A stretch of 64,000 bases of DNA from Tubulanus polymorphus (Eukaryota > Animalia > Nemertea): assembly GCF_964204645.1 (NCBI RefSeq), contig NC_134036.1:9465859-9529858 (forward strand), read 5' to 3'. The translations under genes were made by a program, and so were the position numbers. A model generated the notes under the pieces. That model was not told the DNA's origin and ran no database searches. It worked only from the letters and a program-made list of their open reading frames with translations. The first letter of the stretch is position 1. Every line of letters starts with the position of its first letter. This document shows, piece after piece, positions 18,267-56,236 of the stretch.

Positions 18267-19175
18267 TTATTTGATTGAATTTCTACAGCAGATTTTCGTA
18301 CAGAAATATTCACGAATTTCTCGTCCAAGTAAAAGATATATGTAGAAATTTACCACATAGTTACACATTACGAATTGTGTGAAAATGTCATACAGAAATT
18401 CTTTCCGTTCCGTAAGGATTGGTAAAAATGCAGCAATAGTGGTTGGAAGTGTGAATATTGCAAATGCGAGTGAAACTGTTACAAGCATCATTGTTGTACG
18501 TTTCGATTTTGTAGTTTTCTTATCAGACGAAAGCATTTTTGTACCTCTGAATAACTGAATAATTATGATAGAATTTGATATTAGAATCAAACATAGATAA
18601 AGATTAGATAAAGGCAAAACAAAAGCGTAGACACCAAGCGGAGTAAGAAATTTTATTTGGACAATCAATTCATAGTAACATCCGAAAAACTGGTCGGAAA
18701 AATGTATCGACAAAACAGCGGGAATTTGATCCAGTCCAGTCACTGAAGTTATTATCAATATAGCAAATCTAGCGAATCTAGGTGTACATATCAAACGCGA
18801 ACAGAACGGAAAGAGAACAACTGCCGCACGTTCTAGAGCTATAGCTACCTATAACCAGGAACTGCTAGAATTGGCACCTGCCATCAATATTTCATATATC
18901 TTACAACTGATCAGTGAATTCATGATGAATATAAGACTAGTGTTTAGATTCAAGAGAACAAACTGTAAAAAAGGCATCAGTGTAAAATGTATACAGAACA
19001 GGAAATCACAGACTGATAAAATGACAAGATAGTTAGTGTAAGATAAACTGCGGAATCTGCGACTTGTCATTATGAGAAAAGTAGCTGAATTTCCAAAGAC
19101 TCCAAACAGAAACACGATAGGCAGAATGACCAAGGACACAGTACGGTACGTTCCAGACCTGTTCTGCACCGACAT
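18267..19175 (-). pseudogene. Single-exon class A (rhodopsin-like) GPCR, peptide-receptor-like; frameshift near 18850
   Basis: GN in TM1, LSVCD in TM2, SSSWL..A.ALER..VV.FP in TM3, NFYIY in TM7. Split into ORFs 18849-19175 and 18267-18794. Paralog of 48087-49034. Confidence 0.88.
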
Positions 19176-19470
19176 TAGAACGACGTAACTGCTATACGTT
19201 CGACCAATTCGAATCTAAGTTGAATTCATGATTCACGAGAATTAACTCAGTTCGGTATGCTCCGACCTGTTCACTACACGCATTATAGCAATGTAACTGT
19301 TTAACTGCATCTGAGTTGAATTCATGATTCGATTAAGTGTCAGAGGTGTGTGCACTGATTGTATCAATAGACCGACGATAAGTGCAAGCCATGACGTATA
19401 TTCATTTACGCACACAATTTATTGTTCGCAACAAATGAAAAACAAATTCTCAGAAATCTGACTGAAATTA

Positions 19471-19960
19471 TTAACCCGTTAGCACTCAAACCACCCGAAT
19501 TTGCCCGGCACTTTTTTCGTATGTTGCACGAAAACGGTTATAGTGGGACTCGAGCCCAAAAGCTTATGATAAACTAGACATCTAAGTTCTTGAAATACCG
19601 AACAACTGAAGATAATTTATTACATGGTTCTGGAAAAAATTACAAAATACAAAAGATAGAACCTCAAAGCACCCGAATTTGCCCGGCACTTTTTTCGTAT
19701 GCTTCATGAAAACGGTTATAGTGCGACTCGAGCCCAATAGCTTATGATCAACTAGACACCTAAGTTCTTGAAATACCGATCGGAAATCAACATCCTCCTA
19801 TTTCAATTTCTCGAGTATTTCAAATTTGAACATGACACATCTGAGCGCTCACTTCGAAATAGAACTCTGCTCTTTCAACACTGCGGACCTTGTTGTAGAA
19901 AGAAGTGACATTCTTTTAAGTCTGATTTCCCACTCAACTTTTGGCAAGAAGCAGCAGAAA
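19471..19960. mobile_element. Non-autonomous DNA-transposon fragment upstream of the GPCR (possible piggyBac-like TTAA-CCC end)
   Basis: Starts TTAACCCGTT and has an internal ~110-bp direct repeat (~19493-19600 / ~19670-19780). Related sequence lies at ~49300-49540 and ~55040-55520. No second terminus found. Confidence 0.35.
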
Positions 19961-27174: not shown

Positions 27175-27366
27175 GAGTAATAGGGATAATAGGCTTCCAG
27201 GTTAAAGGTCGAAGGGTCGAGCTCGTAAAAAAATGAAAATAACTATAATTTACAGTTGAATTAGTCGCGCACACTCCTAATTCAACTGCAAATTATTGTT
27301 ATTTTCATTTTTTACTCACTCGCCCCTTCAACCTTTAAACCTGAAAGCCTATTACCCCTATGACTT
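27175..27366. other. Long imperfect hairpin (~90-bp arms) upstream of pPolB
   Basis: GAGTAATAGGG...CAGTTGAATTAG / loop TCGCGCACACTC / CTAATTCAACTG...CCCTATGACT. Homologous hairpin at 56109-56236. Confidence 0.9.
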
Positions 27367-34759: not shown

Positions 34760-35982
34760 ACGCGTCACCGTCGTGTTAGAGAGTAACTGTAGCGGGCTTG
34801 GAGGCATTTCTTTTCTAATTTCTTCTAAAATTCTATGGAGATCGTCGTTCGTTGGAAATGACGTTGTTTTATAATCTGGACTCTTTGGCGACGGTATTTC
34901 CTTGGTATGAGTTACGAGCGGGTTTTCTTCCTTAATTACTGTCGGTGTCTTCTGTCTTTTGCCGGTCGGAACCTTGTTCTCTTTTCCCGGTTTTCTTTTA
35001 GTCGGATGAAGGATCGGGGTCTCCGGGCGACTTAATTAAACACTGGATCTCCGGAGGGGCAAATTCAAATTCATCATCGTCGTCTATCGCGACGAGTTTC
35101 ACTTTTTCGATGATCGATCTGGTATCTTCCTAGTGTCTTCTGTGTGTTTTTCTAGCATGTTGTCGAATCAGGTCTCGACGTCCGTTCTTGTAACTGCAGA
35201 GTTTGCATCGATATTCATACCCCTGATGCGGCTTACTTTGACATTTTAAATCATGCGCCTTGAGGTTCCTCATTGACGCGAAATCTTTCTTACAGTGGAC
35301 ACATAAAAATGGCGTTGTCCCGTGCATTCTGAAATGTATAATCATATTCAAAGTTACAGAGCGAGTAGCAATGGTGGTATAACTCTTCTCCCCGACCTGG
35401 TGTAAGTGGGTGGATCTGGACTGGGTTTCCAGAAGGTCAATTCAGCGAATTGCGGTTTTGTTTCATTTTCTCGCTCGTATAATTTAAGTCGGTCGAAATG
35501 CACTCGTTTAATTTTGTGTATCTTTGTGTATCTCATACCCTACGTTTAATTTTGTGTTTCTCTGTGTATCTCATACCCTACGTCATTTACTTTACGTTTG
35601 ACTGTCCAGGGACCATCCCACGGATGGTATAACTTTGGTGACATTCCCCGAGGGCAAGCGGGGTTATGAAGCCAAACTAATGCTCCGACAGAAAATGCGA
35701 CTCCGGTGGCTTTAGTATCGTAGTTACGCTTCATTCTCCGAGTCCGAACAGTAGAATTGTGTCTTGCCAAATCGTGCGCTGCACGAATACGCTCTCTTAG
35801 TTCTACGGTGAACATATTTAAGCTACGAGAGCTTTCGTGAGGCGGGCCTTCATACATTAAGTCGATGGGTAGGCGAATCTCATGCCCGAACATCAGATTC
35901 GGGGTGAATTTAGTCGAATCATGAACGGCCGATCGATAGGCCATAGCGATGAACGGCAATTGTTCGTCCCAGTCAGAGTGGT
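34760..35982 (-). mobile_element. Gypsy LTR-retrotransposon fragment (integrase C-terminus and downstream zinc-finger ORF)
   Basis: DWDEQLPFIAMAYRSAVHDSTKFTP..MFG.E.RLPIDL, KL...WDGPW.V (GPY/F module), VHFDRLK, TRSGR. Left boundary approximate. Confidence 0.85.
35130..35351 (-). CDS. Two-finger C2H2-type zinc-finger ORF downstream of the Gypsy integrase
   Basis: FLCVHC..F....NLKAH...C and YRCKLC.Y...RRDLIRQH...TH. Confidence 0.6.
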   Translation of the reverse strand: MNMIIHFRMHGTTPFLCVHCKKDFASMRNLKAHDLKCQSKPHQGYEYRCKLCSYKNGRRDLIRQHARKTHRRH

Positions 35983-35989
35983 TAATTAA

Positions 35990-38900
35990 TAAAATTAATA
36001 ATTTAAAAATATATGTATTCGAATTAATGCAATAACCAAAGACAAAAGGTGAAAATATTAAGGATTATACATTGGAAGCTTTATATTTAACAGAATATTA
36101 TGATGATGAAAATGCTATAGATTTGTTATATTACAAAAAAGATGAAAATGAACATTATATGTGGTTAAAACAAATTGATTTATTCTTTAGCACAGAAAGT
36201 GATTTTAACAGGCATAAAATTTATCTATGTAGAAAATTTTTATCTAAATTTAGAACTGAGAATGCTTTACTAAAACATAAAGAATTATGTGGTAATAAAG
36301 ATTTTTGTAAATTTATAATGCCAACAGAAAAAGATTATAAATTGAAATTTACTAATCATAAATTTAAGAATATTGTTCCATTTGTAATTTATGGGGATTT
36401 TGAATCGTTCAATAAAGAATTAACTGATCAAGATAGAAAAGAAATATATAACAAAAAGCAATTATTAAAATCAATGGATAAAGGAAATGAATTAAATGAA
36501 GACACAACACAAGATCCGCCAATTATAAACACAATTAAAAAAGTTCATCAAAGAGCTGCTGCTTATGGAATTTATATGAAATCAAATTATCCTGAATTAT
36601 ATGAAAGTCAATATATTTCTTTTAGAGGTGAAGATGTAGTTAATGATTTTTGTGACAAAATGATTGAATTTGAAAGTGATTTTGCAAAATTATTAAACAA
36701 AAATAAAAGAATAGTTATGACAAAAGAAGATGAAATTGATTTTAATTATGCAACTCATTGTTGTTGTTGTGAAAAAAACGTTTTCATTCATTTGATAAAA
36801 AAGTAAGAGATCATGATCATTTAAATTCAAAATATCGTGGAGCTGCTCATGAAGATTGTAATTTACAAGCTAAGAAAGTTAATTTCGTACCAATATTATT
36901 TCATAATTTATCAGGCTATGATACCCATCTATTTATAAAACAATTATCGAGAAAATTGGGCGCAATTAATCAAGAAATAGAAGAATATAATGCTATGAAT
37001 GGTGTAAATGTAAGAACTATTAGCTAAAACATCCGAAAATTATATTTCATTTCAATTTGGTTGCATTAGTTTTTTAGATTCTTATAGATTTCTTGCAAGT
37101 TCATAAGATAATTTATCAAAAAGTTTAGTTGATAATGATTTTATAATAACTCGATATTATTATCCAAATGAACAAGATTTTAAATTATTGAGATATAAAG
37201 GTGCAATTCCTTATTCATTTTATAAAACACACAATGATTTTAATGTAACAGAATTATTAAAAGATCAATTTTATGATCAATTAAAAGAGGAGTATGTGAA
37301 AGATGAAGTGTTTAATAGTACATTAAATATTTGGAACCATTTTAAGATGAAAAATCATGGTGAATTAGTTGATTTATACTTAAAATCAGATGTTATGATA
37401 TTGGCTGATATATTTGAAAAATTTAGAGAAGTTAATTTGAATCATTTTAATGTTGATCCTTGTTATTGCTACTCTAGTCCTGGTTTAACCTGGCAATGTG
37501 GTTTAAAATACACAAATGTAGAATTAGATTTATTAAAAGAACCAGACATGGTTTTATTATTTGAAAAATGAATTAGAGGTGGAATTAGTGGTGTTATGGG
37601 AGATAGGTATTTTAAAGCAAATGATGAATATAAATTATTATATATTGACGCCAATAATTTATATGGTTGGGCAATGATGCAACCTCAACCATACACAAAT
37701 TTTATATTGACAGAAGTTGAAAATGATGATAAAACTGATTGGGAAAGCGCAATTGCGAGTTTAAAAGATGAAACACCAATTGGTTATTTCTTTGTAGTTG
37801 ATTTAGAATATCCTGAAAATATAAAGTTTAAAACAAGAAACTTACCTTATTGCCCAGAACATTTAACCGTAGATGATAGTTATTTAAGTGAATACCAGAA
37901 GAAAATAAAACCGAAAGATCATGTTTTTACAGAAAAATTAATACTTACTCAAAATAATAAATACAATTATATTGTTCATTATAGAATGTTAAAATTTTAT
38001 CTAAAACAAGGAATGAAATTAAAGAAAGTACATAGATATATTGAATTTTTAATCAATCGAAGTGGTTAGAAAAATATATAGATTTCAATACTCAACGGAG
38101 AACCATATCAAAAAAAGATTTTGAAAAAGATTTCTTCAAATTAATGAATAATAGTTTTTATGGTAAAACATGCGAAAATATTAGAAATAGAAATGATATT
38201 GAATTAGTAAATAATTCTGAACGATTAAGACATTTACAATTAAGTCCTAGACATTTAGGAAATAAAAGATTTGAAGATTAGTTAACAGCAGTTAAATTAA
38301 AAAGAACGTCAATGAAATTTAATAAAGCTATATTAATTGGTTCAACTGTTTTAGAAGTATCAAAATTATTAATGTATGATTTTTATTATAATGTTTTACA
38401 ACCACTTTTTGGGGAAAAGCATATTGAAATATTGTATTTTGATTCTGTAACAGCTGACACCCCAATATTATTAAAATGTAATGATAAAATATTGATAAGA
38501 AGAATTTCAGAAATAATTCCCAAACAAAATGAATGTTATATTTCATATGGTGAAAAAGAATTAATACAAATAAATGGTTTAATGGATGTTTGGACAAGAA
38601 ATGGATTGAAAAAATTAAAGAATATTATTAGGCATAAAACAAATAAGAAAATCTATAGAGTTAGAACTAAATTAGGGTTTGTAGATGTTACAGAAGATCA
38701 TAGTTTAACTAAACGAATTGGCGATGAAATAAAACCAACTGATATAAACATTGGAGATGAATTATTACATAAAAGATTTTTCCAAAGAATGAATCATATG
38801 TCATTCGACGAAATTATTGATAATATTCATAATATAGAACCTGAAACATTAGAAGAAAAAGAATATTTTATCAAAGGATTTTTCATGGGTGATGGTTCAG

Positions 38901-39964
38901 CAGGTGCGTATAATTATGTTTGGGGTAATAAATATTGTTGGTATTTATGCAATCAAGACTTAAAATTATTAGAAAGAATTAAGAAATTCTGTGAAGAAGT
39001 TTATTCACATAAAACATTTAGAATCATGGATGTTATGAAATCATCAGCAGTTTATAGAATACTTGTAAATAATCCTAAAGATTTTGCTATAAAATATAAT
39101 GATGAATTCTATATTCATGCAATAGTGAAAAGTAATACTTCAACAAAAGAAAAGATAGTTCCAGATTATGTATTAAATGCAAAAAATTATTTAAGAAAAT
39201 GGTTCTTCATTGGATTCTACGCAGCAGATGGTGCTAAAAAATTTACAAAGGATAAAAAGAAAACCTTTGCACAGATAGGAAAAGTTGCTTTATCGGGGTT
39301 AAATATATTATGTAATTCATTAGGCTTCAATATGAATATTGGATTGATTAAATCTAAAGGAAATTGCTTTAATTTAAGCCACACAGAAAAAGATTTAACT
39401 GAAGAAGTTAAAGATTTATTTGAAATATATAACCCAACAGATTATGTTTATGATTTATCAACCGAAGATGGCACATTCACCTGTGGATTTCCATTAATTT
39501 GCTTCATTACTGATGCGTACATACTAAAAATCAAGACAAATGACATAACAAAAGACATAAAAACATTAAAACATCATTTTGATTTTAGCAATTATCCCAA
39601 AGATCATGAACTATTTAGCAATGATAATAAACAAATTCCTGGTAAATTTAATAATGAATTAGGGGGTGATGAAATGATTGAATTTGTTGGGATAAGAAGT
39701 AAAATGTATAGTTACAGAACAAAAGATCATGAAGCTACAAAGTTAAAAGGAATAACAAAGCATGTGGTTGATAAACATATAGAATTTCAAGATTATATAA
39801 AGTGTTTATATAACTCAATTGTAATGAAACACAAAATGAATTGTTTAAGATCAGAAGATCACGAGATGTACATTAATGAAGTTGAAAAAACTAGTTTGAA
39901 TCCATTTGATGATAAAAGGCATATTTTAGATGATGGTATAAAAACATTACCTTATGGTTATTAA
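35990..39964 (+). pseudogene. polB: pPolB, intein-containing allele; several frameshifts and stops upstream of the intein
   Basis: Collinear with copy A: IYGDFES, VRDHDH..YRGAAH..CN, YIDANNLYGWAM, KLMNNSFYGKT, YFD[intein]TDA, GIRSKMY, KLKGI, DDKRHIL.DGI.TLPYGY*. Fragmented into ORFs 36072, 37188, 37596 and 38312. Confidence 0.95.
38444..39508 (+). mobile_element. Intein (355 aa) with LAGLIDADG homing endonuclease in pPolB motif C
   Basis: In-frame 1065-bp insert absent from copy A. Block A SVTADTPIL, block B VDVTEDHSL, LAGLIDADG motifs FIKGFFMGDGS and FFIGFYAADGA, block F YVYDLSTEDGTF, and +1 Thr. The terminal residue reads Ile (ATT) where Asn (AAT) is expected. Confidence 0.95.
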
Positions 39965-41288
39965 AATGGATCAATATCATCAAACTCGAAATCGCTATTG
40001 GCTTCTTCATTTTCATTTAATTGTTCTTGTATAATTTGTTTAGGTTCTTCCATTTCATTTTTCTCATTTAAATAACGTGTTATATTGTGCCACATTTCAT
40101 CTCGCTCTCTTTGTTTCTTTTTGTTCGTCAATTCATCAAATGGAAATATAATATCTATGTTTAAATAATTTACAATCTTATTAAAAAAGAGTTCATAATT
40201 AGTTGAATCTGTTATTCTATTATCCACATAATATCTTAATATTTGTTTGAATGTTTCTTTTATATTTTCCATATCTTCTTCTGTTAATTTAGGTTTTTCA
40301 TAATTATCGTTAAATAATAAATATAAATACATTTTCTTTTGTTTTGTGTTAAATGTTGATGGAATAATTGTTTTTATAATATCTTTTTTAGTTATTTCAC
40401 CATTTTTATTTTCTATTTTTTTCATTTTTTCAAGCCATTGCATATATTCTGGTGTATGATCTTCTATAGAAAATATTTTAAAAATGTCATCTAGATAATT
40501 TAATTTTGGTTCTACGAGAAATTCTCTAGTTTTTTCATCACCCCATAAATTCTTTTGCCATCCACATTCATTACAAAATAACACAGTACCTTCTTGTCTT
40601 AAGGTCGCATAAATACATTGTGGGCATTTTTGTTTATAATTTATTGGTGATAGATCTTCATTAAGCTCTTGGTATTTTTTTACGTTTTCTTTATGTTTTA
40701 TTGTTCTATTATGTAGATTTTAATTACTTGTTGTAATAATCAATTTACAATATTTACAATAATATGTTTTTCTTGTTAATTCATTATATTGTTTTTCTAA
40801 CTTTTCAACTGTTTCTTTATTATCTGGTAACGTTTTCTCATAATTCATTTTTTCTAATATTTTATTTTTTCTTTCATTGAATTCTGCTTCAAATTTATTA
40901 GAAATTTTTATCTATATGTACTTTACGAAATTGATGATTCTCCCAATCTTCTATATTTTCAGGGCTATATTTTATTCGACAAGGCTCACAGAAATAATCT
41001 TTTATATTATCCTTATCATAGAATAAGAAAGGTCTTTTCCAAATAATTTCAGATTCAACTTCAACAGAATTACTATTACTTTCATTACTATCAACATTAG
41101 CCGTTGCGCCATTAATTTTACACTTCTCTGAATGATTTTTAACATAATTTCTTGAGAATAATTTATTACATTTAGGGCAGTTTATTTTAGGGGGTTTATA
41201 ATTTTCATCGTGTTTTTTTCATATGTCGAGCCATATTACTTTTTCTTAGAAGTTCACCACAAATTTCGCATGGTATCTTCTCATCCAT
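39961..41288 (-). pseudogene. Multi-zinc-finger protein fused to a VLTF3 (poxvirus A2)-like late transcription factor domain; open C-terminal ORF 39961-40584
   Basis: From ATG 41288: four CxxC..H fingers (two frameshifts, one stop), then a CPQC-x12-CNECG zinc ribbon and F.QI...NY..FF.KI...L....FP...L...K.RERD.MW..I...L, matching my recollection of the VLTF3 C-terminus. Confidence 0.68.
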
Positions 41289-41357
41289 TTATTTAGGAAA
41301 AATTTTATCAAAATTAATTTTTAGTGATGAGCGGTAATTTTTTTATGTTATAAATAA

Positions 41358-42020
41358 ATGGTAGAATTAAAAGAATACAGAATATTTGTTGATTCTAGAA
41401 AACTTTCAAATTATAAATCACATAATTTACTAATACAATTAGATAGAGAATTTGAGAATTGTGTTGATTTAAAATTAGTAAATATAAGTTTATGTAACTC
41501 ATTTTACAATATATCGGATAAAAGTCTAGAACATTTAATTTTTTCAATCTTTTACAAAAAAAGGAATAAATGTTTTTTTATATATTTAAAACCAGGATTA
41601 TATAATTTAGATACATTAGCACAAGAGATTAAATGAAAAGCTCGAGCTGAATTAGGAAGTGATTCCGGATTTAGTATTAGATTTTCAAAAAGTCATAGTT
41701 CTAATAAAAGAAGGTAGATCAAATTTAATGCCTTTTACACACTTTTATATTTATTGCAATTTAATCGATCCTACACAAACATTTGATTGAAGCAACTAAA
41801 GATAAAACTTGCAATTCTAGTATACTAAATATTTTTACCATTAAAAAATGTTAAACAATTTGGAACTCAAATAAATTTTAATTTAACAGAATGTGATTTT
41901 AAACTTTGCATTCCACATTTCAATAATTTCAAATTAGAAATAAGAAATCATAATGGTTATTTAATTGATTTAAATAACTTTCCTGTGATATATGAATTAG
42001 TTATAAGATGTAGAGAGTAA
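41358..42020 (+). pseudogene. Minor capsid protein (penton)-like, disrupted
   Basis: IFVDS..L.IQL......LKLV.....NSFYNIS...YLKPGLYNLDTL, then FYIYCNLID and FKLEIRNHNGYLIDLNNFPVIYEL in downstream frames. This pattern is typical of Polinton single jelly-roll proteins. Confidence 0.7.
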
Positions 42021-42036
42021 TTTTTTCATTATATAA

Positions 42037-42297
42037 ATGAATATAACTGTTGGACCGAGTATATGTTTTGGGTTTGATTTTAAACATGAGAAAGAAATGA
42101 AATTAAACATTAATGATGTAATAACACATATTAAAAATATTGCATTTTCTAATGAAACAACATTTGAGTATGAAACAACAATAGATAATGAAACTTTAAA
42201 TGTAGAAAAGATTACTAATTTAATTAGAGAATCTTTAAGATTTTATGAATTAGTTGAACATTTTATCATCGATGATATTAAAAAAAATAATAATTGA
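42037..42297 (+). CDS. Polinton hypothetical protein
   Basis: ORF preceded by the shared TAAATG motif. Confidence 0.6.
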   Translation: MNITVGPSICFGFDFKHEKEMKLNINDVITHIKNIAFSNETTFEYETTIDNETLNVEKITNLIRESLRFYELVEHFIIDDIKKNNN

Positions 42298-42393
42298 AAT
42301 ATATACAAATGAAACTGGTATTGAAATAAATGTTGAATTAATCATTAATAAGTTAGCTAAATATTTTGAAGATAGTATTTTTTTTATTAATAA

Positions 42394-42615
42394 ATGAGTG
42401 ATAATAAGTGGATAATAACTGGATTATATAATGGAGCATTACTATCAGTTGGAACTGTTGGTTATTCAATGGTATTAAAGAAAGTATTTAAAATGGGAAG
42501 TGTTAATGTTGATAGATTTGATATCAATGATATTTTAAAATTAACATTAGCAGTTACTTTATCTAATTTAACTATTGATCATTTGGAAAAACAAAAATAT
42601 ATTCCTCCTATATAA
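42394..42615 (+). CDS. Small Polinton membrane-associated protein (73 aa)
   Basis: Intact ORF with the shared motif and two hydrophobic or amphipathic segments. Confidence 0.7.
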   Translation: MSDNKWIITGLYNGALLSVGTVGYSMVLKKVFKMGSVNVDRFDINDILKLTLAVTLSNLTIDHLEKQKYIPPI

Positions 42616-42639
42616 ATGCGTAATTATTTTACTAAATAA

Positions 42640-43062
42640 ATGGCTTCTGCAGTTATAACTATTATAGGATCAGCAATTGTTAACGCTTTAGCATTTACTG
42701 GTGGTGGTTATTTATTTAAGCATATCGATAAAAATGGGTCATTAACAGAACAAAAAAGACATAACTTAGCATTAGAGAAATACAATAAAGCTGCAGAAGA
42801 ATATAGAGAAAAGAGGCAAAACTACATGGATTATATTAACAAGGAATTATATGATCAGAAGACTTCACATAGAGATTTTCAATCAGTTGATGGTGCAATG
42901 AGTTTATATAACGCGGTAACCAATAAAGAACAATTACATCTATACAAATCTAAATTATCAGATTATTATACCCCGAGTAAAGAACAACAGAAATATGAAA
43001 TAATATGGATTTTAGGTGGAACTGTTATTGTTATATATGTAGCATATAGATTTACTAATTAG
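42640..43062 (+). CDS. Polinton protein with N- and C-terminal hydrophobic helices and a central coiled coil (140 aa)
   Basis: Intact ORF with the shared motif; IIGSAIVNALAFTGGGYLF...KRHNLALE...WILGGTVIVIYVAY. Confidence 0.75.
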   Translation: MASAVITIIGSAIVNALAFTGGGYLFKHIDKNGSLTEQKRHNLALEKYNKAAEEYREKRQNYMDYINKELYDQKTSHRDFQSVDGAMSLYNAVTNKEQLHLYKSKLSDYYTPSKEQQKYEIIWILGGTVIVIYVAYRFTN

Positions 43063-43082
43063 TAATTTTTTTTGCTAAATAA

Positions 43083-43508
43083 ATGGATGATAATATTGAT
43101 AATATTCCTCATGATATAAATAAACATAAATTAAAAATATATTTAGAAAAACAAATATTAGAATTTGAAAATGATTTAAAAGTTAAGAAGAAAAAATATT
43201 TAAAATCTAAAATTATTTATTGTTTTATTAATAGTGGTTCGGTTACAATTAGTTCTGTAATAACATTTCTAGCAATATTCAGCCCACTAACACCTTTAGC
43301 TATATCAATTGGTGTATTAGGATTAAGTTCAAGTGTTTTAACTGGTATAAGTTGAAAATTAAATATAAAAAGTAATAAAGAAAAAATTAAAACTAATATA
43401 AAAGAAATTAATAAATTAAAGAATACACTAGATTATATAATAAGTTTAAATGGTCATATAACAGTTGAAGAACAAGATAAATTATTAAAAGAATTAATAA
43501 ATTATTAA
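43083..43508 (+). pseudogene. Polinton two-TM, coiled-coil protein with one in-frame stop (43353-43355)
   Basis: Hydrophobic hairpin SGSVTISSVITFLAIFSPLTPLAISIGVLGLSSSVLTGI. The frame continues past TGA to TAA at 43508, just before the next gene motif. Confidence 0.65.
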
Positions 43509-43523
43509 TTTTTTATCATATAA

Positions 43524-44836
43524 ATGGTAGATAGTTTTCCAAAAGCTTTCCAATATTATAAATCAATTAAATATAATATTCCAGCAATAGATTTTACTAA
43601 AGATATTTCATATAGAAATGAAGTTTTAAATTCATTAATTGATTTATATATTTATGTTACTGAAAGTAATAATTTTCATGTAAAGATGGAAAATATATTC
43701 AATGTTTATGAAATTAATTTTAAAGATTTAAATGAGGCAAAACAATGGTTATTAAAATCTTATATGAAGTATTGGCAGAACCAATTAAATTTTGCTGTTT
43801 ATTGTGCAACAACAGGATGTGGAATTAGTTGGAATGATCATTTGAATAAACCAAGTTTACCATTGATGTTATCACTTTTTAGATTGCATACTTATTTTCA
43901 AATAAAATTAATATTAGATGAATTAGAATGTCCTTTACCAGGTTCAAAATACTTTAATGAACTAAATAATAATATTAATTTTTCAAAGTTTTATAAATTA
44001 TGTAATGAATTTAATATTAATTCAAATAAAGATTTTAGAGCAAAAATTGGAACAATGGGTGGATTAGGAATATTATATACTAAAGAATTTGGAAAAATAA
44101 GGACAAATTCAGATATAAGAACACTAAATTGGAATGAATTACCAAAATATTATAATAATATACAACAACAAAACAATAATGGTTGGGTTAATTTCATTTT
44201 AGAAAATATTGAAGGTTTTACTAAAGCTGGAATACAAAGAATAAATCAAACTTATTTGATATGTATTTTAGGCGCTCAAGTTGAAACAAGATCACCAATA
44301 GTTGGAAATGATAACACTTCATTTGATGCGCAGAAACAATTCAAAGTATTATTTGAAGATTCCATTCATAATGATAAAAATAGATCGATTCCAGAAAACA
44401 TTGTAAGATATCAAAATTATTTAGATAAATCTCATGTAAGACTAAATTATTGTATAGGCCCTAAACTTTTAATTATTGCTAATGATTTAGTACTAAAGCT
44501 GGGAAACATAATTGGTTATAATAATCTAACTAAACTGCAACAGTAAATAATTCATTTGGGTTGAATGATATAAATAAAAAGATTATTACTGCCCCAAAAT
44601 TAATGGAAGGTGAAAAAAATAAAAAACATATTCAATCAACAGAAACTAAAACTAAGAATATTAAATTCAATAATGATTCTAAACCGGATTATAATACATC
44701 AGAAAATATTAAAACTGATAATATTCAACAGGATATAATTAAAACTGATAATGATAATAAATTCCATGAAAATACTAAATTAGCTTTAACTTGTATAGGA
44801 ATTGTAATCGGAGGAATGTTATATTTTAAATTTTAA
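43524..44836 (+). pseudogene. Conserved Polinton hypothetical protein with a C-terminal TM anchor; ORFs 43524-44546 and 44561-44836 are probably one frameshifted gene
   Basis: YWQNQLNFAVYCATTGCGIS motif. The second ORF lacks both an ATG and the TAAATG motif and ends in LALTCIGIVIGGMLYF. Confidence 0.65.
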
Positions 44837-44851
44837 TTTTTTATTATATAA

Positions 44852-46308
44852 ATGGATGTAGAAGGTGGAGAAGATATTGGAATGGATACTTTTGATGAAC
44901 CTGGCATAACTGATGAACAACAACCTGATTTTAGTGAAACAAGTTTTAATGACGGTAATGAGCCAGAATATAATAACAATTTAAATATGCCTGATTATAT
45001 TAAAAATGCAGAATCACAATTAAATCCTGAAAATTTAGACCCAGATTTAGTAAAACAAGATTTAGAAAATTTAAACAAAATACCTAAATTAGAACGTATA
45101 ATTGAAAATTCTAAATTTAACATAAATGATGAAGACGTTGGACCTTTAGCAGATAAATTAAAATTTTTAGATAATGGTAAATGGTATTATCATTTGAAAG
45201 ATGATTATTATATTGATATCACTTTTAAAAATGAAAACAAAATATTAGCAAAATCAACTTTAGACAAATTAGAACCAGGTAGAATTAAAAGAACTAGTAA
45301 TAGTAATGTAATAACTGATGTTATAAAACAAGAATTAACTGTAAATGATATAGACGTATTTAAACAAAAAATTAATGAATTATTTGACAAAATCAAAAAG
45401 AAATCAGAAACAGAAATAACTTCTGAACATAATATAACTTCCAATACTAGTAAACTTAAATCAAATAAATTGAAAAACTTTTACCGAATGGATTAATTGA
45501 TGCAACAGATCAAGAATTAGAAGATTTAAATAATATATTTTCTGTTGAAGCAATTAGAGAAATAAAAAGTATATGACTTGCATCTGATAAAATTGCGCAT
45601 GATATAAGTATAAGAGATTTTAAAATTCGAACTTTAGAAAAAGAATTAACTGATAAAAATAAAGAAATAGAACAATTAACGTCTGATTTAGATCATCAAG
45701 TAATTGATGTAATAGAATATAGGCAAAAAGAATTACGTTTAGAAAAAGAAATAGATGATTTAAAATATAACATAGAATTACAAAAAGAAAAAATTAAATT
45801 ATTATTAAAATCATATGATTATAATGTTAATAGATTAAAAGTTATTTTTAAAGATTTGTTGATAAAACCAAATTCTGAAATATCATTAAAAGATAGAATA
45901 AAGTTATTATTTAAATTAGAAGGAATAACAATTCTTTCAATTCTAACAGCTGTAACTATGTTATTTACAGCAATTGGTTTAGCAATATCAAATTCTTTGA
46001 AATCTACTCCTACTCCCAATAAACCGGATAAACCCCCGAATGATAATAATTCTATACAAGATAAAGTTAAGGATGGTTTAAAGAAATTAGCCAAATATTT
46101 ATGGGAACTATCTAAAAAATCTGCTGCAGCATTACCCGGAATTATTGCATCAATTGTTGGTTTTATATTGAAATCTGCAGGTAATATTCTTAACTTTGCT
46201 GCTGAACATATTATTTCATTTTTAATTACAGTTGTAAGTGCTATTATTTTTGGGTTAGTGAATATGATATCAAAAAGATATCAAGAAAAAGTAATAAAAA
46301 ATAAATAA
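44852..46308 (+). pseudogene. Large Polinton protein (acidic N-terminus, coiled coil, C-terminal TM segments), disrupted into ORFs 44852-45496 and 45856-46308
   Basis: Single TAAATG start, coiled-coil-like coding between the two ORFs, and EGITILSILTAVTMLFTAIGLAI...KSAAALPGIIASIVGFIL. Confidence 0.65.
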
Positions 46309-46328
46309 TTAATTTTTTTGTTAAATAC

Positions 46329-46707
46329 ATGAGTGGGAGTTATATAAGTCCTTCTAAGATTTCTAGAATATCTATGCTATTAAAGCAGAAAGATCACATC
46401 ATATAATTACTCATAATCCTTCAAATATTAATCCCGATGAAACTTTATATGTTAGAATTCCTAGATTAACACAAAATACTTTTTATGTTCCAAATAGTAT
46501 TTATTTATCAGCCGATATAAAAGTAACTGGTCATGATAATAATTGTGTTGTCGATAATGTTGGGAGATATTTGATTAAAAAATTAACTATAAAGATTGGT
46601 CCAGAAACAGTTTTCTCATTAGATGATTATAATTTATTTATGCATTATAAAGATTTATGGTTAACTAAAGAAAATAGAAATAATATGATATTTCAAGGCA
46701 TTCAATC
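46329..46707 (+). pseudogene. Major capsid protein (double jelly-roll) N-terminal third, frameshifted and truncated
   Basis: ERSHHIITHNPSNINPDETLYVRIPRL...YVPNSIYL...VVDNVGRYLIKKL.IK...VFSLDDY.LF.HYKDLWLT...R.NMIFQGIQ, matching my recollection of invertebrate Polinton MCP N-termini. Composition breaks at ~46707. Confidence 0.72.
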
Positions 46708-47207
46708 GTCCGTCGCGTCACTGTCTAATATCCGGCGTTTAACATTCAATTTCAATCGATGTTTCAGGTGAAATCCTGAACACTCGTTTATCGAGTACGA
46801 TCACGTTTTTTTCCCCGTGAAGTTTGCTATTAAAACGTTTATGCCCGATGTTTGCGAGGTTCAGGCTGTACATTGATACCAGCAAGAGTCACTTGCACCG
46901 CAATCGGTCGAATATACTCCGCACATTTATTGAAGATTTTCAATAAAAAAAAACTAAAATAAAACTGCAAGTTTCAAAAGTCTTTGCATTTTGAAAACAA
47001 CTCAAAGCTGATCGCCATTGCTTTACTAAAACGACGAAGAACGCAAATAAATACCTTGACAAGCGATGTGGCCTTCTCCCTGTACAAAGCCCTACAAGTT
47101 CAACAACGAATACGTATTTGTATTGAATATATCCGCATGTAATTATTGGGCAACCCCCTAGAATATCTGTCCCTACGCCCAATCGCACCCCCTAACCTCA
47201 TTATTAC

Positions 47208-47288
47208 CTGTATGTAGTTGGCGTTGATATAGTCGCTATAAGGATCAGCGCCAGTCTCAACTTCCAGCACGACTCGAGAGGCATCATC
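47208..47288 (-). pseudogene. Orphan exon of a classical (receptor-type) protein tyrosine phosphatase
   Basis: DDASRVVLEVETGADPYSDYINANYIQ (PTP motifs DxxRVxL and DYINA) followed by donor CAG|GTAAT. The acceptor AG is missing. Confidence 0.82.
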
Positions 47289-48086
47289 AAGAGAGGCACT
47301 CATTGCATGAGTGTACACATGCAGGCTTATGGCGAAATCCTGTTACAAATTGAACCAGAGAAATATATAATACCCGTTATTGTAACGGTTCATAGAATAT
47401 GAAAGATATCGGCAGAGTGGAGGACACAAACCTACCCTACCGGTCGTGACACGCATCCACAAGTGAAGAAGGCAAGGCGCAAGATCAAACTATGGCTCCA
47501 AGGTCTTTTAGTTCTGGAGTGTTATACACATTAACGGTAATTGTATTTTACTGAAGTGTTACCGGAATATGCGGATTTAAGTTTTATGAAGTCAATCAAA
47601 CTATGAATCAATGATTAATAAATGATTACATGACTTCATTTCTACAGCGGATTTTCATACAGAAATATTTCTCGTCCAGCTACAATAAAGTTTTGATAAA
47701 CTACTGTTTGTATTTGTGTGTTGTATACAAAATGACCAACGAAAATGAAAAGATTCAACAATTTGTAGAAAGAACATGTAGATTTTCCAAACTTTTTGTT
47801 TTATTATATATTTGCAGCTGTATAACAATCGAATTTCACTAACTGAATATCACACTGTTACCAGGCCACAGTAAATACGGTTTCAAGTTGTATGACTACG
47901 TGGGGTGGGGGATAAGGGGGCAGGGGAGTATATTTAATGATTAAAAGGCCGCGGTTCATAGGAACCATTTTACACTAATAGGTCCATTGACACGATTTTC
48001 AAGGGCAGTGATTTCTTGATTAATTTCCAATTCTCAAGCAAAATGTCCTACTATAAATCGATGTGAATAAAATTTTAAATCAGTGG

Positions 48087-49034
48087 TTATTTGATTGAAT
48101 TTCTACAGCAGATTTTCATACAGAAATATTCACGAATTTCTCGTCCCATTAAAAGATATATGTAGAAATTTACCACATAGTTACACATTAGGAATTGTGT
48201 GAAAATGTCATATAGAAATTCTTTCTGTTCCGTAAGGATTGGTAAAAATGCAGCGATAGTGGTTGGAAGTGTGAATATTGCAAATGCGAGTGAAACTGTT
48301 ACAAGCATCATTGTTGTACGTTTCGATTTTGTAGTTTTCTTATCAGACGAAAGCATTTTTGTTCCTCTGAATAACTGAATAATTATGATAGAATTTGATA
48401 TCAGAATCGACGATAAAGGCAAAACAAAAGCGTAGAAACCAAGTGGAGTAAGAAATTTCATTTGGACAATTAATTCATAGTAACATCCGAAAAACTGGTC
48501 GGAAAAATGTATCGACAAAGTAGCGGGAAGTTGAACCAGTACAGTCACTGTAGTAATTATCAATATAGCAAATCTAGCGAATCTAGGCGTGCATATCAAA
48601 CGAGAAGTGAACGGAAAGAGAACAACTGCCGCACGTTCTAGAGATATAGCTACCAATAACCAGGAACTGCTAGAATTGGCAACTGCCATCAATATTTCAT
48701 ATATCTTACAACTGATCAGTGAATTCATGATGAATACAAGACTAGTATTTAGATTCAATAGAATAAACTGTAAAACAGGCATCAGTGTAAAATTTTTGCA
48801 GTACAAGAAATCACAGACTGACAAAATGACAAGATAGTTAGCGTAAGATAAACTGCGGAATTTGCGACTTGTCATTATAAGAAAAGTAGCTGATTTTCCA
48901 AAGACTCCAAACAGAAACACGATAGGCAGAATGACCAACGACACAGTACGGTAAGTTCCAGACCTGTTCTCCACCGACATTAGAATGATGTAACTGCTAT
49001 ACGTTCGGCCAATTCGTATCTTAGTTGAATTCAT
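48087..49034 (-). CDS. Single-exon class A GPCR, peptide-receptor-like, open frame (315 aa; second Met MSVENRS may be the true start)
   Basis: Seven hydrophobic segments, LSVCD, C at the top of TM3, SLERAAVVLFP, FAIFTLP, NFYIY and a C-terminal CC. TM1 GN is changed to GK. Confidence 0.88.
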   Translation of the reverse strand: MNSTKIRIGRTYSSYIILMSVENRSGTYRTVSLVILPIVFLFGVFGKSATFLIMTSRKFRSLSYANYLVILSVCDFLYCKNFTLMPVLQFILLNLNTSLVFIMNSLISCKIYEILMAVANSSSSWLLVAISLERAAVVLFPFTSRLICTPRFARFAILIITTVTVLVQLPATLSIHFSDQFFGCYYELIVQMKFLTPLGFYAFVLPLSSILISNSIIIIQLFRGTKMLSSDKKTTKSKRTTMMLVTVSLAFAIFTLPTTIAAFLPILTEQKEFLYDIFTQFLMCNYVVNFYIYLLMGREIREYFCMKICCRNSIK

Positions 49035-49666
49035 GATTCACGAGAATTAACTCAGTTCGGTATGCTCCAGACCTGTTTACTACACGCATTATAGCAATGT
49101 AACTGTTAAACTGCATCTGAGCTGAATTCATGATTCGATTAAGTGTCAGCGGTATGTGGACTGATTGTATCAATAGACTGAAGCTACGTGCAAGCCATGA
49201 CGTATATTCATTTACGCAAGCAATTTATTGTTCGCATCAAATGAAAAACAAATTTTCAGAAATCTGACTCAATTTACTCAGATTCAGTAAAAATTTATCA
49301 CCCCATTGGCACTCAAGCTGTCCCTATCCCCCCAGACTTATACTACTCAAATCCCGAATCCGCCCGGCACTTTTTTCGTATGCCGCACGAAAACGGTTAT
49401 AGAAGGATTCGAGCCCAATAGCTTATGATAAACTACACGCCTAAGTCCTTGAAATACCGTACATAAATCAACATCCTCCTACTTCAGTTTCTCGAGTATT
49501 TCAAATTTGAACATGATACATCTGGGCGCTCACTTCGAATCCAAGTAAGTTGGGATTAATTTCGGGGGAGAAAAGGACATGATTTTGGTGGCCCGCCTCA
49601 TCAAATCTTACATCATATGAAAACCTTGACTATTTACTACAAATTACTACATTTACTACAAACTTA

Positions 49667-52444
49667 CAGGTTCAAAATACTTTAATGAACTAAATAATAA
49701 TATTAATTTTTCAAAGTTTTATAAATTATGTAATGAATTTAATATTAATTCAAATAAAGATTTTAGAACAAAAATTGGAACAATGGGTGGATTAGGAATA
49801 TTATATACTAAAGAATTTGGAAAAATAAGGACAAATTCAGATATAAGAACACTAAATTGGAATGAATTACCAAAATATTATAATAATATACAACAACAAA
49901 ACAATAATGGTTGGGTTAATTTCATTTTAGAAAATATTGAAGGTTTTACTAAAGCTGGAATACAAAGAATAAATCAATCTTTTAGAACTTATTTGATATG
50001 TATTTTAGGCGCTCAAGTTGAAACAAGATCACCAATAGTTGGAAATGATAACACTTCATTTGATGCGCAGAAACAATTCAAAGTATTATTTGAAGATTCC
50101 ATTCATAATGATAAAAATAGATCGATTCCAGAAAACATTGTAAGATATCAAAATTATTTAGATAAATCTCATGTAAGACTAAATTATTGTATAGGCCCTA
50201 AACTTTTAATTATTGCTAATGATTTAGTACTAAAGCTGGGAAACATAATTGGTTATAATAATCTAACTAAACTGCAACAGTAAATAATTCATTTGGGTTG
50301 AATGATATAAATAAAAAGATTATTACTGCCCCAAAATTAATGGAAGGTGAAAAAAATAAAAAACATATTCAATCAACAGAAACTAAAACTAAGAATATTA
50401 AATTCAATAATGATTCTAAACCGGATTATAATACATCAGAAAATATTAAAACTGATAATATTCAACAGGATATAATTAAAACTGATAATGATAATAAATT
50501 CCATGAAAATACTAAATTAGCTTTAACTTGTATAGGAATTGTAATCGGAGGAATGTTATATTTTAAATTTTAATTTTTTATTATATAAATGGATGTAGAA
50601 GGTGGAGAAGATATTGGAATGGATACTTTTGATGAACCTGGCATAACTGATGAACAACAACCTGATTTTAGTGAAACAAGTTTTAATGACGGTAATGAGC
50701 CAGAATATAATAACAATTTAAATATGCCTGATTATATTAAAAATGCAGAATCACAATTAAATCCTGAAAATTTAGACCCAGATTTAGTAAAACAAGATTT
50801 AGAAAATTTAAACAAAATACCTAAATTAGAACGTATAATTGAAAATTCTAAATTTAACATAAATGATGAAGACGTTGGACCTTTAGCAGATAAATTAAAA
50901 TTTTTAGATAATGGTAAATGGTATTATCATTTGAAAGATGATTATTATATTGATATCACTTTTAAAAATGAAAACAAAATATTAGCAAAATCAACTTTAG
51001 ACAAATTAGAACCAGGTAGAATTAAAAGAACTAGTAATAGTAATGTAATAACTGATGTTATAAAACAAGAATTAACTGTAAATGATATAGACGTATTTAA
51101 ACAAAAAATTAATGAATTATTTGACAAAATCAAAAAGAAATCAGAAACAGAAATAACTTCTGAACATAATATAACTTCCAATACTAGTAAACTTAAATCA
51201 AATAAATTGAAAAACTTTTACCGAATGGATTAATTGATGCAACAGATCAAGAATTAGAAGATTTAAATAATATATTTTCTGTTGAAGCAATTAGAGAAAT
51301 AAAAAGTATATGACTTGCATCTGATAAAATTGCGCATGATATAAGTATAAGAGATTTTAAAATTCGAACTTTAGAAAAAGAATTAACTGATAAAAATAAA
51401 GAAATAGAACAATTAACGTCTGATTTAGATCATCAAGTAATTGATGTAATAGAATATAGGCAAAAAGAATTACGTTTAGAAAAAGAAATAGATGATTTAA
51501 AATATAACATAGAATTACAAAAAGAAAAAATTAAATTATTATTAAAATCATATGATTATAATGTTAATAGATTAAAAGTTATTTTTAAAGATTTGTTGAT
51601 AAAACCAAATTCTGAAATATCATTAAAAGATAGAATAAAGTTATTATTTAAATTAGAAGGAATAACAATTCTTTCAATTCTAACAGCTGTAACTATGTTA
51701 TTTACAGCAATTGGTTTAGCAATATCAAATTCTTTGAAATCTACTCCTACTCCCAATAAACCGGATAAACCCCCGAATGATAATAATTCTATACAAGATA
51801 AAGTTAAGGATGGTTTAAAGAAATTAGCCAAATATTTATGGGAACTATCTAAAAAATCTGCTGCAGCATTACCCGGAATTATTGCATCAATTGTTGGTTT
51901 TATATTGAAATCTGCAGGTAATATTCTTAACTTTGCTGCTGAACATATTATTTCATTTTTAATTACAGTTGTAAGTGCTATTATTTTTGGGTTAGTGAAT
52001 ATGATATCAAAAAGATATCAAGAAAAAGTAATAAAAAATAAATAATTAATTTTTTTGTTAAATACATGAGTGGGAGTTATATAAGTCCTTCTAAGATTTC
52101 TAGAATATCTATGCTATTAAAGCAGAAAGATCACATCATATAATTACTCATAATCCTTCAAATATTAATCCCGATGAAACTTTATATGTTAGAATTCCTA
52201 GATTAACACAAAATACTTTTTATGTTCCAAATAGTATTTATTTATCAGCCGATATAAAAGTAACTGGTCATGATAATAATTGTGTTGTCGATAATGTTGG
52301 GAGATATTTGATTAAAAAATTAACTATAAAGATTGGTCCAGAAACAGTTTTCTCATTAGATGATTATAATTTATTTATGCATTATAAAGATTTATGGTTA
52401 ACTAAAGAAAATAGAAATAATATGATATTTCAAGGCATTCAATC
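49667..52444 (+). mobile_element. Duplicated Polinton B segment (ORFs 49783, 50298, 50589, 51593 and the MCP fragment 52066-52444)
   Basis: Translations are identical to those of 43939-46707 apart from a 3-aa indel (SFR) and one substitution. Confidence 0.93.
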
Positions 52445-52944
52445 GTCCGTCGCGTCACTGTCTAATATCCGGCGTTTAACATTCAATTTCAATCGATGTT
52501 TCAGGTGAAATCCTGAACACTCGTTTATCGAGTACGATCACGTTTTTTTCCCCGTGAAGTTTGCTATTAAAACGTTTATGCCCGATGTTTGCGAGGTTCA
52601 GGCTGTACATTGATACCAGCAAGAGTCACTTGCACCGCAATCGGTCGAATATACTCCGCACATTTATTGAAGATTTTCAATAAAAAAAAACTAAAATAAA
52701 ACTGCAAGTTTCAAAAGTCTTTGCATTTTGAAAACAACTCAAAGCTGATCGCCATTGCTTTACTAAAACGACGAAGAACGCAAATAAATACCTTGACAAG
52801 CGATGTGGCCTTCTCCCTGTACAAAGCCCTACAAGTTCAACAACGAATACGTATTTGTATTGAATATATCCGCATGTAATTATTGGGCAACCCCCTAGAA
52901 TATCTGTCCCTACGCCCAATCGCACCCCCTAACCTCATTATTAC

Positions 52945-53025
52945 CTGTATGTAGTTGGCGTTGATATAGTCGCTATAAGGATCAGCGCCAGTCTCAACTT
53001 CCAGCACGACTCGAGAGGCATCATC
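52945..53025 (-). pseudogene. Duplicate of the orphan PTP exon
   Basis: Identical to 47208-47288. Confidence 0.82.
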
Positions 53026-53823
53026 AAGAGAGGCACTCATTGCATGAGTGTACACATGCAGGCTTATGGCGAAATCCTGTTACAAATTGAACCAGAGAAA
53101 TATATAATACCCGTTATTGTAACGGTTCATAGAATATGAAAGATATCGGCAGAGTGGAGGACACAAACCTACCCTACCGGTCGTGACACGCATCCACAAG
53201 TGAAGAAGGCAAGGCGCAAGATCAAACTATGGCTCCAAGGTCTTTTAGTTCTGGAGTGTTATACACATTAACGGTAATTGTATTTTACTGAAGTGTTACC
53301 GGAATATGCGGATTTAAGTTTTATGAAGTCAATCAAACTATGAATCAATGATTAATAAATGATTACATGACTTCATTTCTACAGCGGATTTTCATACAGA
53401 AATATTTCTCGTCCAGCTACAATAAAGTTTTGATAAACTACTGTTTGTATTTGTGTGTTGTATACAAAATGACCAACGAAAATGAAAAGATTCAACAATT
53501 TGTAGAAAGAACATGTAGATTTTCCAAACTTTTTGTTTTATTATATATTTGCAGCTGTATAACAATCGAATTTCACTAACTGAATATCACACTGTTACCA
53601 GGCCACAGTAAATACGGTTTCAAGTTGTATGACTACGTGGGGTGGGGGATAAGGGGGCAGGGGAGTATATTTAATGATTAAAAGGCCGCGGTTCATAGGA
53701 ACCATTTTACACTAATAGGTCCATTGACACGATTTTCAAGGGCAGTGATTTCTTGATTAATTTCCAATTCTCAAGCAAAATGTCCTACTATAAATCGATG
53801 TGAATAAAATTTTAAATCAGTGG

Positions 53824-54771
53824 TTATTTGATTGAATTTCTACAGCAGATTTTCATACAGAAATATTCACGAATTTCTCGTCCCATTAAAAGATATATGT
53901 AGAAATTTACCACATAGTTACACATTAGGAATTGTGTGAAAATGTCATATAGAAATTCTTTCTGTTCCGTAAGGATTGGTAAAAATGCAGCGATAGTGGT
54001 TGGAAGTGTGAATATTGCAAATGCGAGTGAAACTGTTACAAGCATCATTGTTGTACGTTTCGATTTTGTAGTTTTCTTATCAGACGAAAGCATTTTTGTT
54101 CCTCTGAATAACTGAATAATTATGATAGAATTTGATATCAGAATCGACGATAAAGGCAAAACAAAAGCGTAGAAACCAAGTGGAGTAAGAAATTTCATTT
54201 GGACAATTAATTCATAGTAACATCCGAAAAACTGGTCGGAAAAATGTATCGACAAAGTAGCGGGAAGTTGAACCAGTACAGTCACTGTAGTAATTATCAA
54301 TACAGCAAATCTAGCGAATCTAGGCGTGCATATCAAACGAGAAGTGAACGGAAAGAGAACAACTGCCGCACGTTCTAGAGATATAGCTACCAATAACCAG
54401 GAACTGCTAGAATTGGCAACTGCCATCAATATTTCATATATCTTACAACTGATCAGTGAATTCATGATGAATACAAGACTAGTATTTAGATTCAATAGAA
54501 TAAACTGTAAAACAGGCATCAGTGTAAAATTTTTGCAGTACAAGAAATCACAGACTGACAAAATGACAAGATAGTTAGCGTAAGATAAACTGCGGAATTT
54601 GCGACTTGTCATTATAAGAAAAGTAGCTGATTTTCCAAAGACTCCAAACAGAAACACGATAGGCAGAATGACCAACGACACAGTACGGTAAGTTCCAGAC
54701 CTGTTCTCCACCGACATTAGAATGATGTAACTGCTATACGTTCGGCCAATTCGTATCTTAGTTGAATTCAT
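53824..54771 (-). CDS. Single-exon class A GPCR, duplicate of 48087-49034
   Basis: 315 aa with one amino-acid difference (FAIL vs FAVL). Confidence 0.88.
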   Translation of the reverse strand: MNSTKIRIGRTYSSYIILMSVENRSGTYRTVSLVILPIVFLFGVFGKSATFLIMTSRKFRSLSYANYLVILSVCDFLYCKNFTLMPVLQFILLNLNTSLVFIMNSLISCKIYEILMAVANSSSSWLLVAISLERAAVVLFPFTSRLICTPRFARFAVLIITTVTVLVQLPATLSIHFSDQFFGCYYELIVQMKFLTPLGFYAFVLPLSSILISNSIIIIQLFRGTKMLSSDKKTTKSKRTTMMLVTVSLAFAIFTLPTTIAAFLPILTEQKEFLYDIFTQFLMCNYVVNFYIYLLMGREIREYFCMKICCRNSIK

Positions 54772-56108
54772 GATTCACGAGAATTAACTCAGTTCGGTAT
54801 GCTCCAGACCTGTTTACTACACGCATTATAGCAATGTAACTGTTAAACTGCATCTGAGCTGAATTCATGATTCGATTAAGTGTCAGCGGTATGTGGACTG
54901 ATTGTATCAATAGACTGAAGCTACGTGCAAGCCATGACGTATATTCATTTACGCAAGCAATTTATTGTTCGCATCAAATGAAAAACAAATTTTCAGAAAT
55001 CTGACTCAATTTACTCAGATTCAGTAAAAATTTATCACCCCATTGGCACTCAAGCTGTCCCTATCCCCCCAGACTTATACTACTCAAATCCCGAATCCGC
55101 CCGGCACTTTTTTCGTATGCCGCACGAAAACGGTTATAGAAGGATTCGAGCCCAATAGCTTATGATAAACTACACGCCTAAGTCCTTGAAATACCGTACA
55201 TAAATCAACATCCTCCTACTTCAGTTTCTCGAGTATTTCAAATTTGACAAGATACATCTGGGCGCTCACTTCGAATCCAAGTAAGTTGGGATTAATTTCG
55301 GGGGAGAAAAGGACATGATTTTGGTGGCCCGCCTCATCAAATCTTACATCATATGAAAACCTTGACTATTTACTACAAAATAACACTAACTTGTTATGCA
55401 TGAAAATCGAGATCTGGAATAGAACTCTGCTCCCCCGAGACTGCAGACCCTTTTGTAGAAAGAAGCGGCATTCTTTAAAGTCAGATTCTCCCATCCAACT
55501 TTTGGCAAGAAGCAGCGACCTAGCTGCCATGACAGTTTTTGGTAAAGTATTTAGCCCTAATGATCTCAAATTAATTTGAAAACTGATTCGCATAACTTAA
55601 CTGTGGAAATCATGAATTGGAATTGTATTTTACCTATGACCGCGTTGTGCTTGTCACGTGATTTTAGTAACGGCGGAAGTTTCGTTCCTTTACCTCGTTA
55701 GTAGTGATAGGGGATTACTATACACGAGTGGTTAAAATTGTGGTTGTGGTTAAATCCAAAATGGCGGCTGTCATGTGATCCAAGATGGCGCCCCGTTCCA
55801 AGATGGCGGCGGTCGCGTGACCCCCGTATGATTCAAGAATTGCGATGGATGCTCCCAACAGCTGTTACACGATTACTGATGCGATAACCCGCGTTCGAAT
55901 AGAACATTATACAATATTGATTAACGACTGTTATATATTTCAAATAATGCTTTTTATTTCGAACCACACATCACAATCGATTTTACGTCACAGAACAAGT
56001 GCGGGCAAGAATATTTACGCAATTGATATACATCATAGGTTGAAAAGTTATCATTTAGTTACCAGGGGGTAAACATCATCACGACGACGATCCGATCGCG
56101 ATAGAATA

Positions 56109-56236
56109 TAAGTAATAGGGAATATATTGTTTCAAGCCAAAGGTCGAAGGGTCGAAAAATAATTTCTCGCACACTCGAATTTATTTTTCGACCCTTCAAC
56201 CTTTAACTTGAAACAACTTATTCCCTATTACTCTTA
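56109..56236. other. Long imperfect hairpin (~56-bp arms) homologous to 27175-27366
   Basis: AGTAATAGGGAA...AAAGGTCGAAGGGTCGAAAAATAA / loop CGCACACTC / TTATTTTTCGACCCTTCAACCTTT...TTCCCTATTACT. Confidence 0.9.

Follow-up and report, generated by a model that had tools for sequence, protein, structure and literature searches.

VLTF3, the late transcription factor of vaccinia virus also known as A2 (PF04947, with an A2L-type ribbon), which late promoters require for their transcription, is the closest described relative of the protein considered here. The accessible text of PMC11253617 calls VLTF3 homologs undetectable outside the Nucleocytoviricota and uses the protein as a marker of that phylum. 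The accessible part of PMC11131425, citing Krupovic and Koonin 2016, places VLTF3 in a subgroup of polintoviruses (stony-coral), and the parts of bioRxiv 10.64898/2026.06.19.733378 and PMC8502044 that were available report homologs in PLV clusters. The initial annotation of our locus counted VLTF3 outside the canonical Polinton genes; any novelty on that score is superseded by the published polintovirus subgroup, so far as the accessible text of PMC11131425 describes it. Those elements resemble ours in pairing pPolB with an accessory VLTF3-like gene, and are set apart by their description, which in the available text mentions no zinc-finger fusion, promoter motif, or pPolB-adjacent position. 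VLTF3 is also kept in nucleocytoviricots without an RNA polymerase, according to the accessible portion of bioRxiv 10.64898/2026.08.29.747986. In the accessible parts of the Ariadnavirales preprint and, for the Mriyaviricetes, of PMC11253617, VLTF3 likewise occurs without an RNA polymerase of the virus's own (stated for ariadnaviruses); unlike our integrated pPolB element, which has only VLTF3, these are nucleocytoviricots that also keep VLTF2.

We analyzed a 64,000-nucleotide stretch of the genome of the nemertean Tubulanus polymorphus, hereafter the window. The element under study is an AT-rich island of about 24% GC in a host region of 38% GC. Its protein-primed DNA polymerase B gene (pPolB; 35985..39964, plus strand) is broken and lacks its 5' part, and shares 62 to 81% identity with the pPolB of a related locus, L001. 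It contains an intein of LAGLIDADG type at about 38450-39500 (plus strand), for which the Intein_splicing match (E = 1e-6) fell below the cut-off. Because the intein is missing from both L001 and a second pPolB copy at 28052 in the window, and numerous reads end at its border, we consider it polymorphic in the family. The copy at 28052 matched PF03175 (E = 6e-14). Polintons have a double jelly-roll capsid gene; here a probable major capsid protein gene, reduced to its start and surviving part, lies at 46307..46771 (plus strand), with a T-tract and TACATG at 46329; the fragment matched Capsid_N weakly (E = 0.002, below the cut-off). An open reading frame (ORF) scan of the truncated window copy showed no integrase, packaging ATPase, or protease; the related locus L005 encodes an integrase with a chromodomain and an ATPase. 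Together with the intact tail-to-tail gene pair in L001, the PF03175 match and the identity to the L001 polymerase bear out the Polinton context that had been proposed. Where the 5' end of pPolB has been lost, a retrotransposon-integrase-like remnant gave weak matches (35546-36064, minus strand).

Polinton termini begin with AG and form inverted repeats. Both ends of the element carrying the VLTF3-like gene have been lost, but ends starting with AGTAA and bearing the word GGTCGA-nn-GGTCGA were found in L001 and next to two further pPolB copies of the window. Just before these two copies lie long fold-back palindromes (27176-27365 and 56111-56232; z about -15). The left arm of the palindrome looks like the one terminal repeat of L001, with its AGTAA start and its GGTCGA-nn-GGTCGA word, so that the element end appears to have been duplicated as a hairpin. 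Past the terminal repeat of L001, a stretch at L001:6360-6508 reads like an exon of RhoGAP, so that L001, too, is integrated in a eukaryotic genome. Elsewhere in the window, a tandem duplication of 5.7 kb (43939-49646 and 49667-55382; 99.8% identity) takes in genes of the element together with an inserted repeat that has an ORF for a rhodopsin-family GPCR, and is either a recent duplication or an assembly artefact. A repeat of 2.2 kb, which contains the GPCR-like ORF, is present in three copies (17454-19604, 47300-49463, and 53037-55200), the first 88% identical to the others, and is possibly a mobile element with a host receptor gene. Helitron Rep/helicase remnants (PF14214, PIF1) occupy 6993-10369 on the minus strand.

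The zinc-finger/VLTF3-like gene extends on the minus strand from an ATG at 41288 to a stop at 39961 (39961..41288). It was described initially as convergent with pPolB, and its stop indeed overlaps that of the polymerase frame at 38282-39964 (plus strand), placing the two genes tail-to-tail; the same arrangement, with both genes intact, is found in L001. Two frameshifts, one near 41217 and the other near 40900, split the gene over three frames, and it has an in-frame stop at 40720-40722. A HMMER search across 1.84 billion representatives found three relatives: P0001 (697 aa, 47%), P0002 (446 aa, 36%), and P0003 (281 aa, fingerless). Since the intact P0001 spans all three pieces in order, at 36 to 48% identity by tblastn, the pieces are those of one decayed gene; what the window contains is a pseudogene. 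In raw reads under the same species label (run X7), depth over the gene was about 220 to 300, similar to the 270 to 360 or so over pPolB outside the intein. Only 257 of 19,959 reads on 38000-44000 were at least 99% alike, and about three quarters of the reads at each frameshift site differed in length from the window copy (run X7). These read data point to a multicopy family in which the window copy has decayed and the breaks are not family-wide. Directly 3' of pPolB in four further loci are ORFs of 160 to 200 aa with a ribbon plus helices (L162:9668-10189, L152:3342-3830, L183:1463-1966, and L149:5834-6436). Only their ribbon scores against VLTF3, and they are possibly a shortened form of the VLTF3-like protein.

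Two parts of the protein correspond to VLTF3: a C4 zinc ribbon of VLTF3/TFIIB type (C-x2-C-x13-C-x2-C; 40564..40626, minus strand), which forms a beta-ribbon in the model, and an all-helical domain (40066..40527, minus strand) recognized by HHalign, modeling, and Foldseek. The C-terminal motif reported at the outset, NY..F.KI...L...FP...K.RERD.MW..I...L., was found as described. The reported CPQC-x12-CNECG ribbon is also present, with a spacer of 13 rather than 12 residues; all 37 aligned sequences keep its four cysteines (C8, C11, C25, and C28). For comparison, giant-virus VLTF3 proteins were gathered by one motif (RxNFLSYSYVL-type), which yielded 73 of sufficient length among 125 loci; all six tested members of this motif-selected set passed PF04947. 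When four family sequences were aligned to the 73 by HHalign, the profiles matched at 94.6% over 188 collinear columns with a score of 55.3, compared to 21.8 for the reversed profile and at most 25.2 in 200 column shuffles. The signal persisted without the ribbon (33.0 versus at most 30.3 in 200 shuffles) and in the last 80 columns (26.9 versus at most 15.0 in 80 shuffles). In the ESM Atlas, residues 20-228 alone gave a top cluster at 0.95, with 214 of 256 features in common and PF04947 in 75% of its members, and 28 of 30 hits fell in the PF04947 set. A single-sequence model (pLDDT 51) had no Foldseek match at E ≤ 0.001, with 10 of the best 20 rows named VLTF3 or late factor. An alignment-based model (pLDDT 84) ranked cowpox VLTF3 first (E = 2e-5, TM 0.62), a match that is partly circular because 34 VLTF3 rows went into its alignment. 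These comparisons uphold the VLTF3-like identity first suggested, and we conclude that the protein is very probably a divergent VLTF3 homolog.

The divergence is considerable. Neither the window ORF nor P0001-P0003 matched PF04947 at E ≤ 1 in a Pfam search, and hmmsearch with our own VLTF3 profile gave the window ORF only 4.1 bits after composition and bias correction. What is kept from VLTF3 is the C4 ribbon with a small number of core residues, the invariant positions being the four cysteines and F, Y, L, K, and W, within the same predicted fold (in the partly circular model). The signature motifs NHFxEW, YYEH, and RxNFLSYSYVL, near-invariant in giant-virus VLTF3, are eroded to scattered positions (the reference set having been selected on the last), and with their loss the function may have shifted. 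The ribbon spacer also differs, at 13 residues versus 14 to 16 in 55 of 57 giant-virus VLTF3 proteins of the motif-selected set. A relation to TFIIB had likewise been proposed. It stands on the literature, A2L being called TFIIB-derived in the accessible part of bioRxiv 10.1101/2022.11.22.517515. Like TFIIB, in which tandem cyclin folds come after the ribbon, the window protein has an N-terminal C4 ribbon followed by helices. However, in a Foldseek comparison with the PDB, TFIIB and Rap94 took ranks 1 to 4 at a nonsignificant E of 0.2 to 0.5 (TFIIB, 0.3) and TM under 0.2.

All four of the N-terminal zinc fingers that had been noted were found (minus strand). Finger 1 (41210..41270), C2H2-like and split by the first frameshift, matched zf-C2H2 weakly (E = 0.009, below the cut-off) and is intact in P0001 and P0002. 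Finger 2 (41120..41179) was recognized by its motif, C-x2-C-x11-H-x3-C. Finger 3 (40916..40990; C-x2-C-x14-H-x5-H) is JAZ/matrin-like, and its equivalent in P0002 passes PF12171. Finger 4 (40693..40758; C-x2-C-x11-H-x5-H) is U1-like and interrupted by the in-frame stop, read as X. Each of the intact proteins P0001 and P0002 has all four fingers complete together with the ribbon. A finger motif before the ribbon was found in 0 of 57 complete giant-virus VLTF3 proteins, a set selected by one motif rather than the whole family. A Krüppel-type, DNA-reading C2H2 array was considered and rejected, given spacings of x11/x14 instead of tandem x12 fingers joined by short conserved linkers, the distance between fingers 3 and 4, and their JAZ/U1-like character. 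Fingers of the x11/x5 type stand at the head of pPolB, too, in both L001 and L005. The proposal that the added fingers confer promoter specificity consequently lost its footing: there is no linked C2H2 array, and the same type heads pPolB. These motifs make a general nucleic acid-binding module, common to pPolB, the likeliest role for the fingers, rather than a sequence-reading array. The accessible passages of the literature contained no mention of a four-finger VLTF3 fusion.

The starts of the element's genes share a signal that the initial annotation had missed: a T-tract, about 6 nt, and then TAAATG. It heads the VLTF3-like gene itself (41286..41305, minus strand), its divergent neighbor, ORF 41358 (41338..41360, plus strand), and six further genes (42037, 42394, 42640, 43083, 43524, and 44852; 42017..44854, plus strand), where intergenic gaps are 16 to 25 nt where measured. 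Nine gene starts in the element were called blind to the motif and compared with 196 other ATGs. TAAATG was present at 7 of the 9 versus 13 of the 196 (P = 9e-7), and TAAATG with the T-tract at 7 of 9 versus 4 of 196 (P = 4e-9); the two starts without the motif resemble internal ATGs of broken frames. None of 25 starts in window positions 1-26800 had the T-tract/TAAATG motif. In addition to the factor's own gene, the motif heads both L001 genes, including pPolB, and L002. Across the window, L001, and L002, T occupied positions -7 to -12 in 9 to 12 of 12 starts (one row offset by one base), against a background T of 0.34. In the window's remaining two pPolB copies, an A-rich TAAAATG stands at the start instead. 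Several starts contain AATAAA, four do not, and a T-tract frequently starts at the stop codon that lies upstream.

We surveyed the motif in 25 pPolB loci (L001 and 24 viral) and then in 45 loci from MAG contigs. In the first set, TAAATG was found at 2/2 starts in L001 and 5/5 in L005; two loci were marginal (P about 0.05), and 21 showed nothing. Among the MAG-contig loci, of which 10 had no scorable start, two similar ones were enriched, L154 (5/13) and L175 (5/14). AT content does not account for the motif, since the AT-rich pPolB loci L127 (GC 0.22) and L131 (GC 0.29) have TAAATG at 1/9 and 0/9 starts, without enrichment. The start motif is lineage-specific. Motif and VLTF3-like gene occur together in only two pPolB-linked elements, those of the window and L001; in the partial DNA of L005, L154, and L175, no VLTF3-like gene was detected. 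TAAATG starts occur in these elements as well, so any coupling of factor and motif is putative.

In poxviruses, late transcription initiates inside TAAAT and yields a 5' poly(A) leader. In the accessible part of PMC11980589, the vaccinia late promoter is TAAAT with the start codon's G as the next base and T residues lying about 10 nt before it; A2L is listed there as a late factor. The element shares the word, its position, and the T-run at -7 to -12, and we regard its T-tract/TAAATG, on sequence grounds, as a candidate promoter or initiator. Unlike the poxvirus late promoter, it precedes nearly all genes, including that of the factor and one pPolB (L001), and no viral RNA polymerase was seen in the window. 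The idea that the element runs its own genes with a giant-virus-type factor thus gains a pox-like signal of the element's own, while the word "late" was an overstatement, given the motif on the factor gene and the L001 polymerase. Among listings of openly accessible papers, mostly main texts, none was found to link animal Polintons to TAAATG or to a late promoter.

How might factor and motif work together? The reading we favor, tentatively and at a little short of even confidence, is that the intact protein acts in initiation much as TFIIB does and delivers a borrowed polymerase, probably host Pol II, to T-tract/TAAATG starts. One Polinton lineage has kept a divergent four-finger VLTF3 tail-to-tail with pPolB; the intact factor would read the T-tract/TAAATG starts as a TFIIB-like initiation factor and would recruit the borrowed RNA polymerase to them. 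Since the motif also heads the gene of the factor itself, that gene would be switched on too, making the protein a positive-feedback switch that turns on an integrated copy rather than a late-gene-only factor. No DFDGD motif of an RNA polymerase was found in six frames of the window, and a general scan of window ORFs recognized no VLTF1 or VLTF2 partner homologs. Host Pol II is favored because the family is integrated and multicopy and because VLTF3 persists in polymerase-less nucleocytoviricots. However, if transcription began inside TAAATG there would be no 5' UTR; this is unusual for Pol II and counts against it.

The absent 5' UTR would be explained if the element were instead a virophage-like hyperparasite, with TAAATG read by the polymerase of a coinfecting poxvirus-like helper and the VLTF3-like protein redirecting, or competing for, the late machinery. 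Virophages share the late promoter of their helper, and PLVs have been found with entomopoxviruses. The motif layout equals that of the poxvirus late promoter in the accessible part of PMC11980589, the best fold matches of the alignment-based model are cowpox and entomopox VLTF3, and the element's 24% GC departs from the 38% of the host region. A motif on the factor's own gene and on the L001 pPolB would also call for an outside trigger. Nevertheless, this host has no known helper, and the multicopy state of the family in the host genome, together with the chromodomain integrase of L005, whose starts carry TAAATG, indicates a nuclear phase. We consider a helper-driven element rather unlikely.

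Somewhat less probable again is a VLTF3-derived protein that now has another role, for example as a repressor, a modulator of host transcription, or a replication accessory, with TAAATG an independent translation or RNA-processing signal. The vanished signature motifs, the finger type common to pPolB, and the TAAATG starts of elements with no VLTF3-like gene detected would all fit such a change, as would the AATAAA in several starts and the T-tracts that begin at upstream stop codons. Against this, the motif heads divergent starts that have no same-strand gene upstream (41288, 41358, and the L001 pPolB), four starts do without AATAAA, and the ribbon and the whole helical domain are retained. 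Finally, a chance likeness of a generic ribbon and lysine-rich helices to VLTF3, which the missing Pfam match and the bias-corrected hmmsearch score would allow, is largely refuted and very improbable, since ribbon-free HHalign exceeded every shuffle and the ESM and single-sequence Foldseek results agree with VLTF3 without any VLTF3 input.

Returning to the initiation-factor reading and its helper-driven counterpart, a bolder picture, which we hold to be rather doubtful, is of a Polinton lineage with a pox-type circuit: a late promoter on every gene and a finger-VLTF3 that is a self-activating switch or a helper-polymerase adaptor, such elements being virophages of animal poxviruses. VLTF3 forms unseen by Pfam mean that this marker reaches beyond the Nucleocytoviricota and can be missed. 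The locus also touches on how Polintons express their genes and on whether those of animals depend on a helper virus. One small element here combines a candidate factor with a sharply defined candidate promoter, so that both questions become testable by plasmid reporter, and the value of the finding lies in this pairing.
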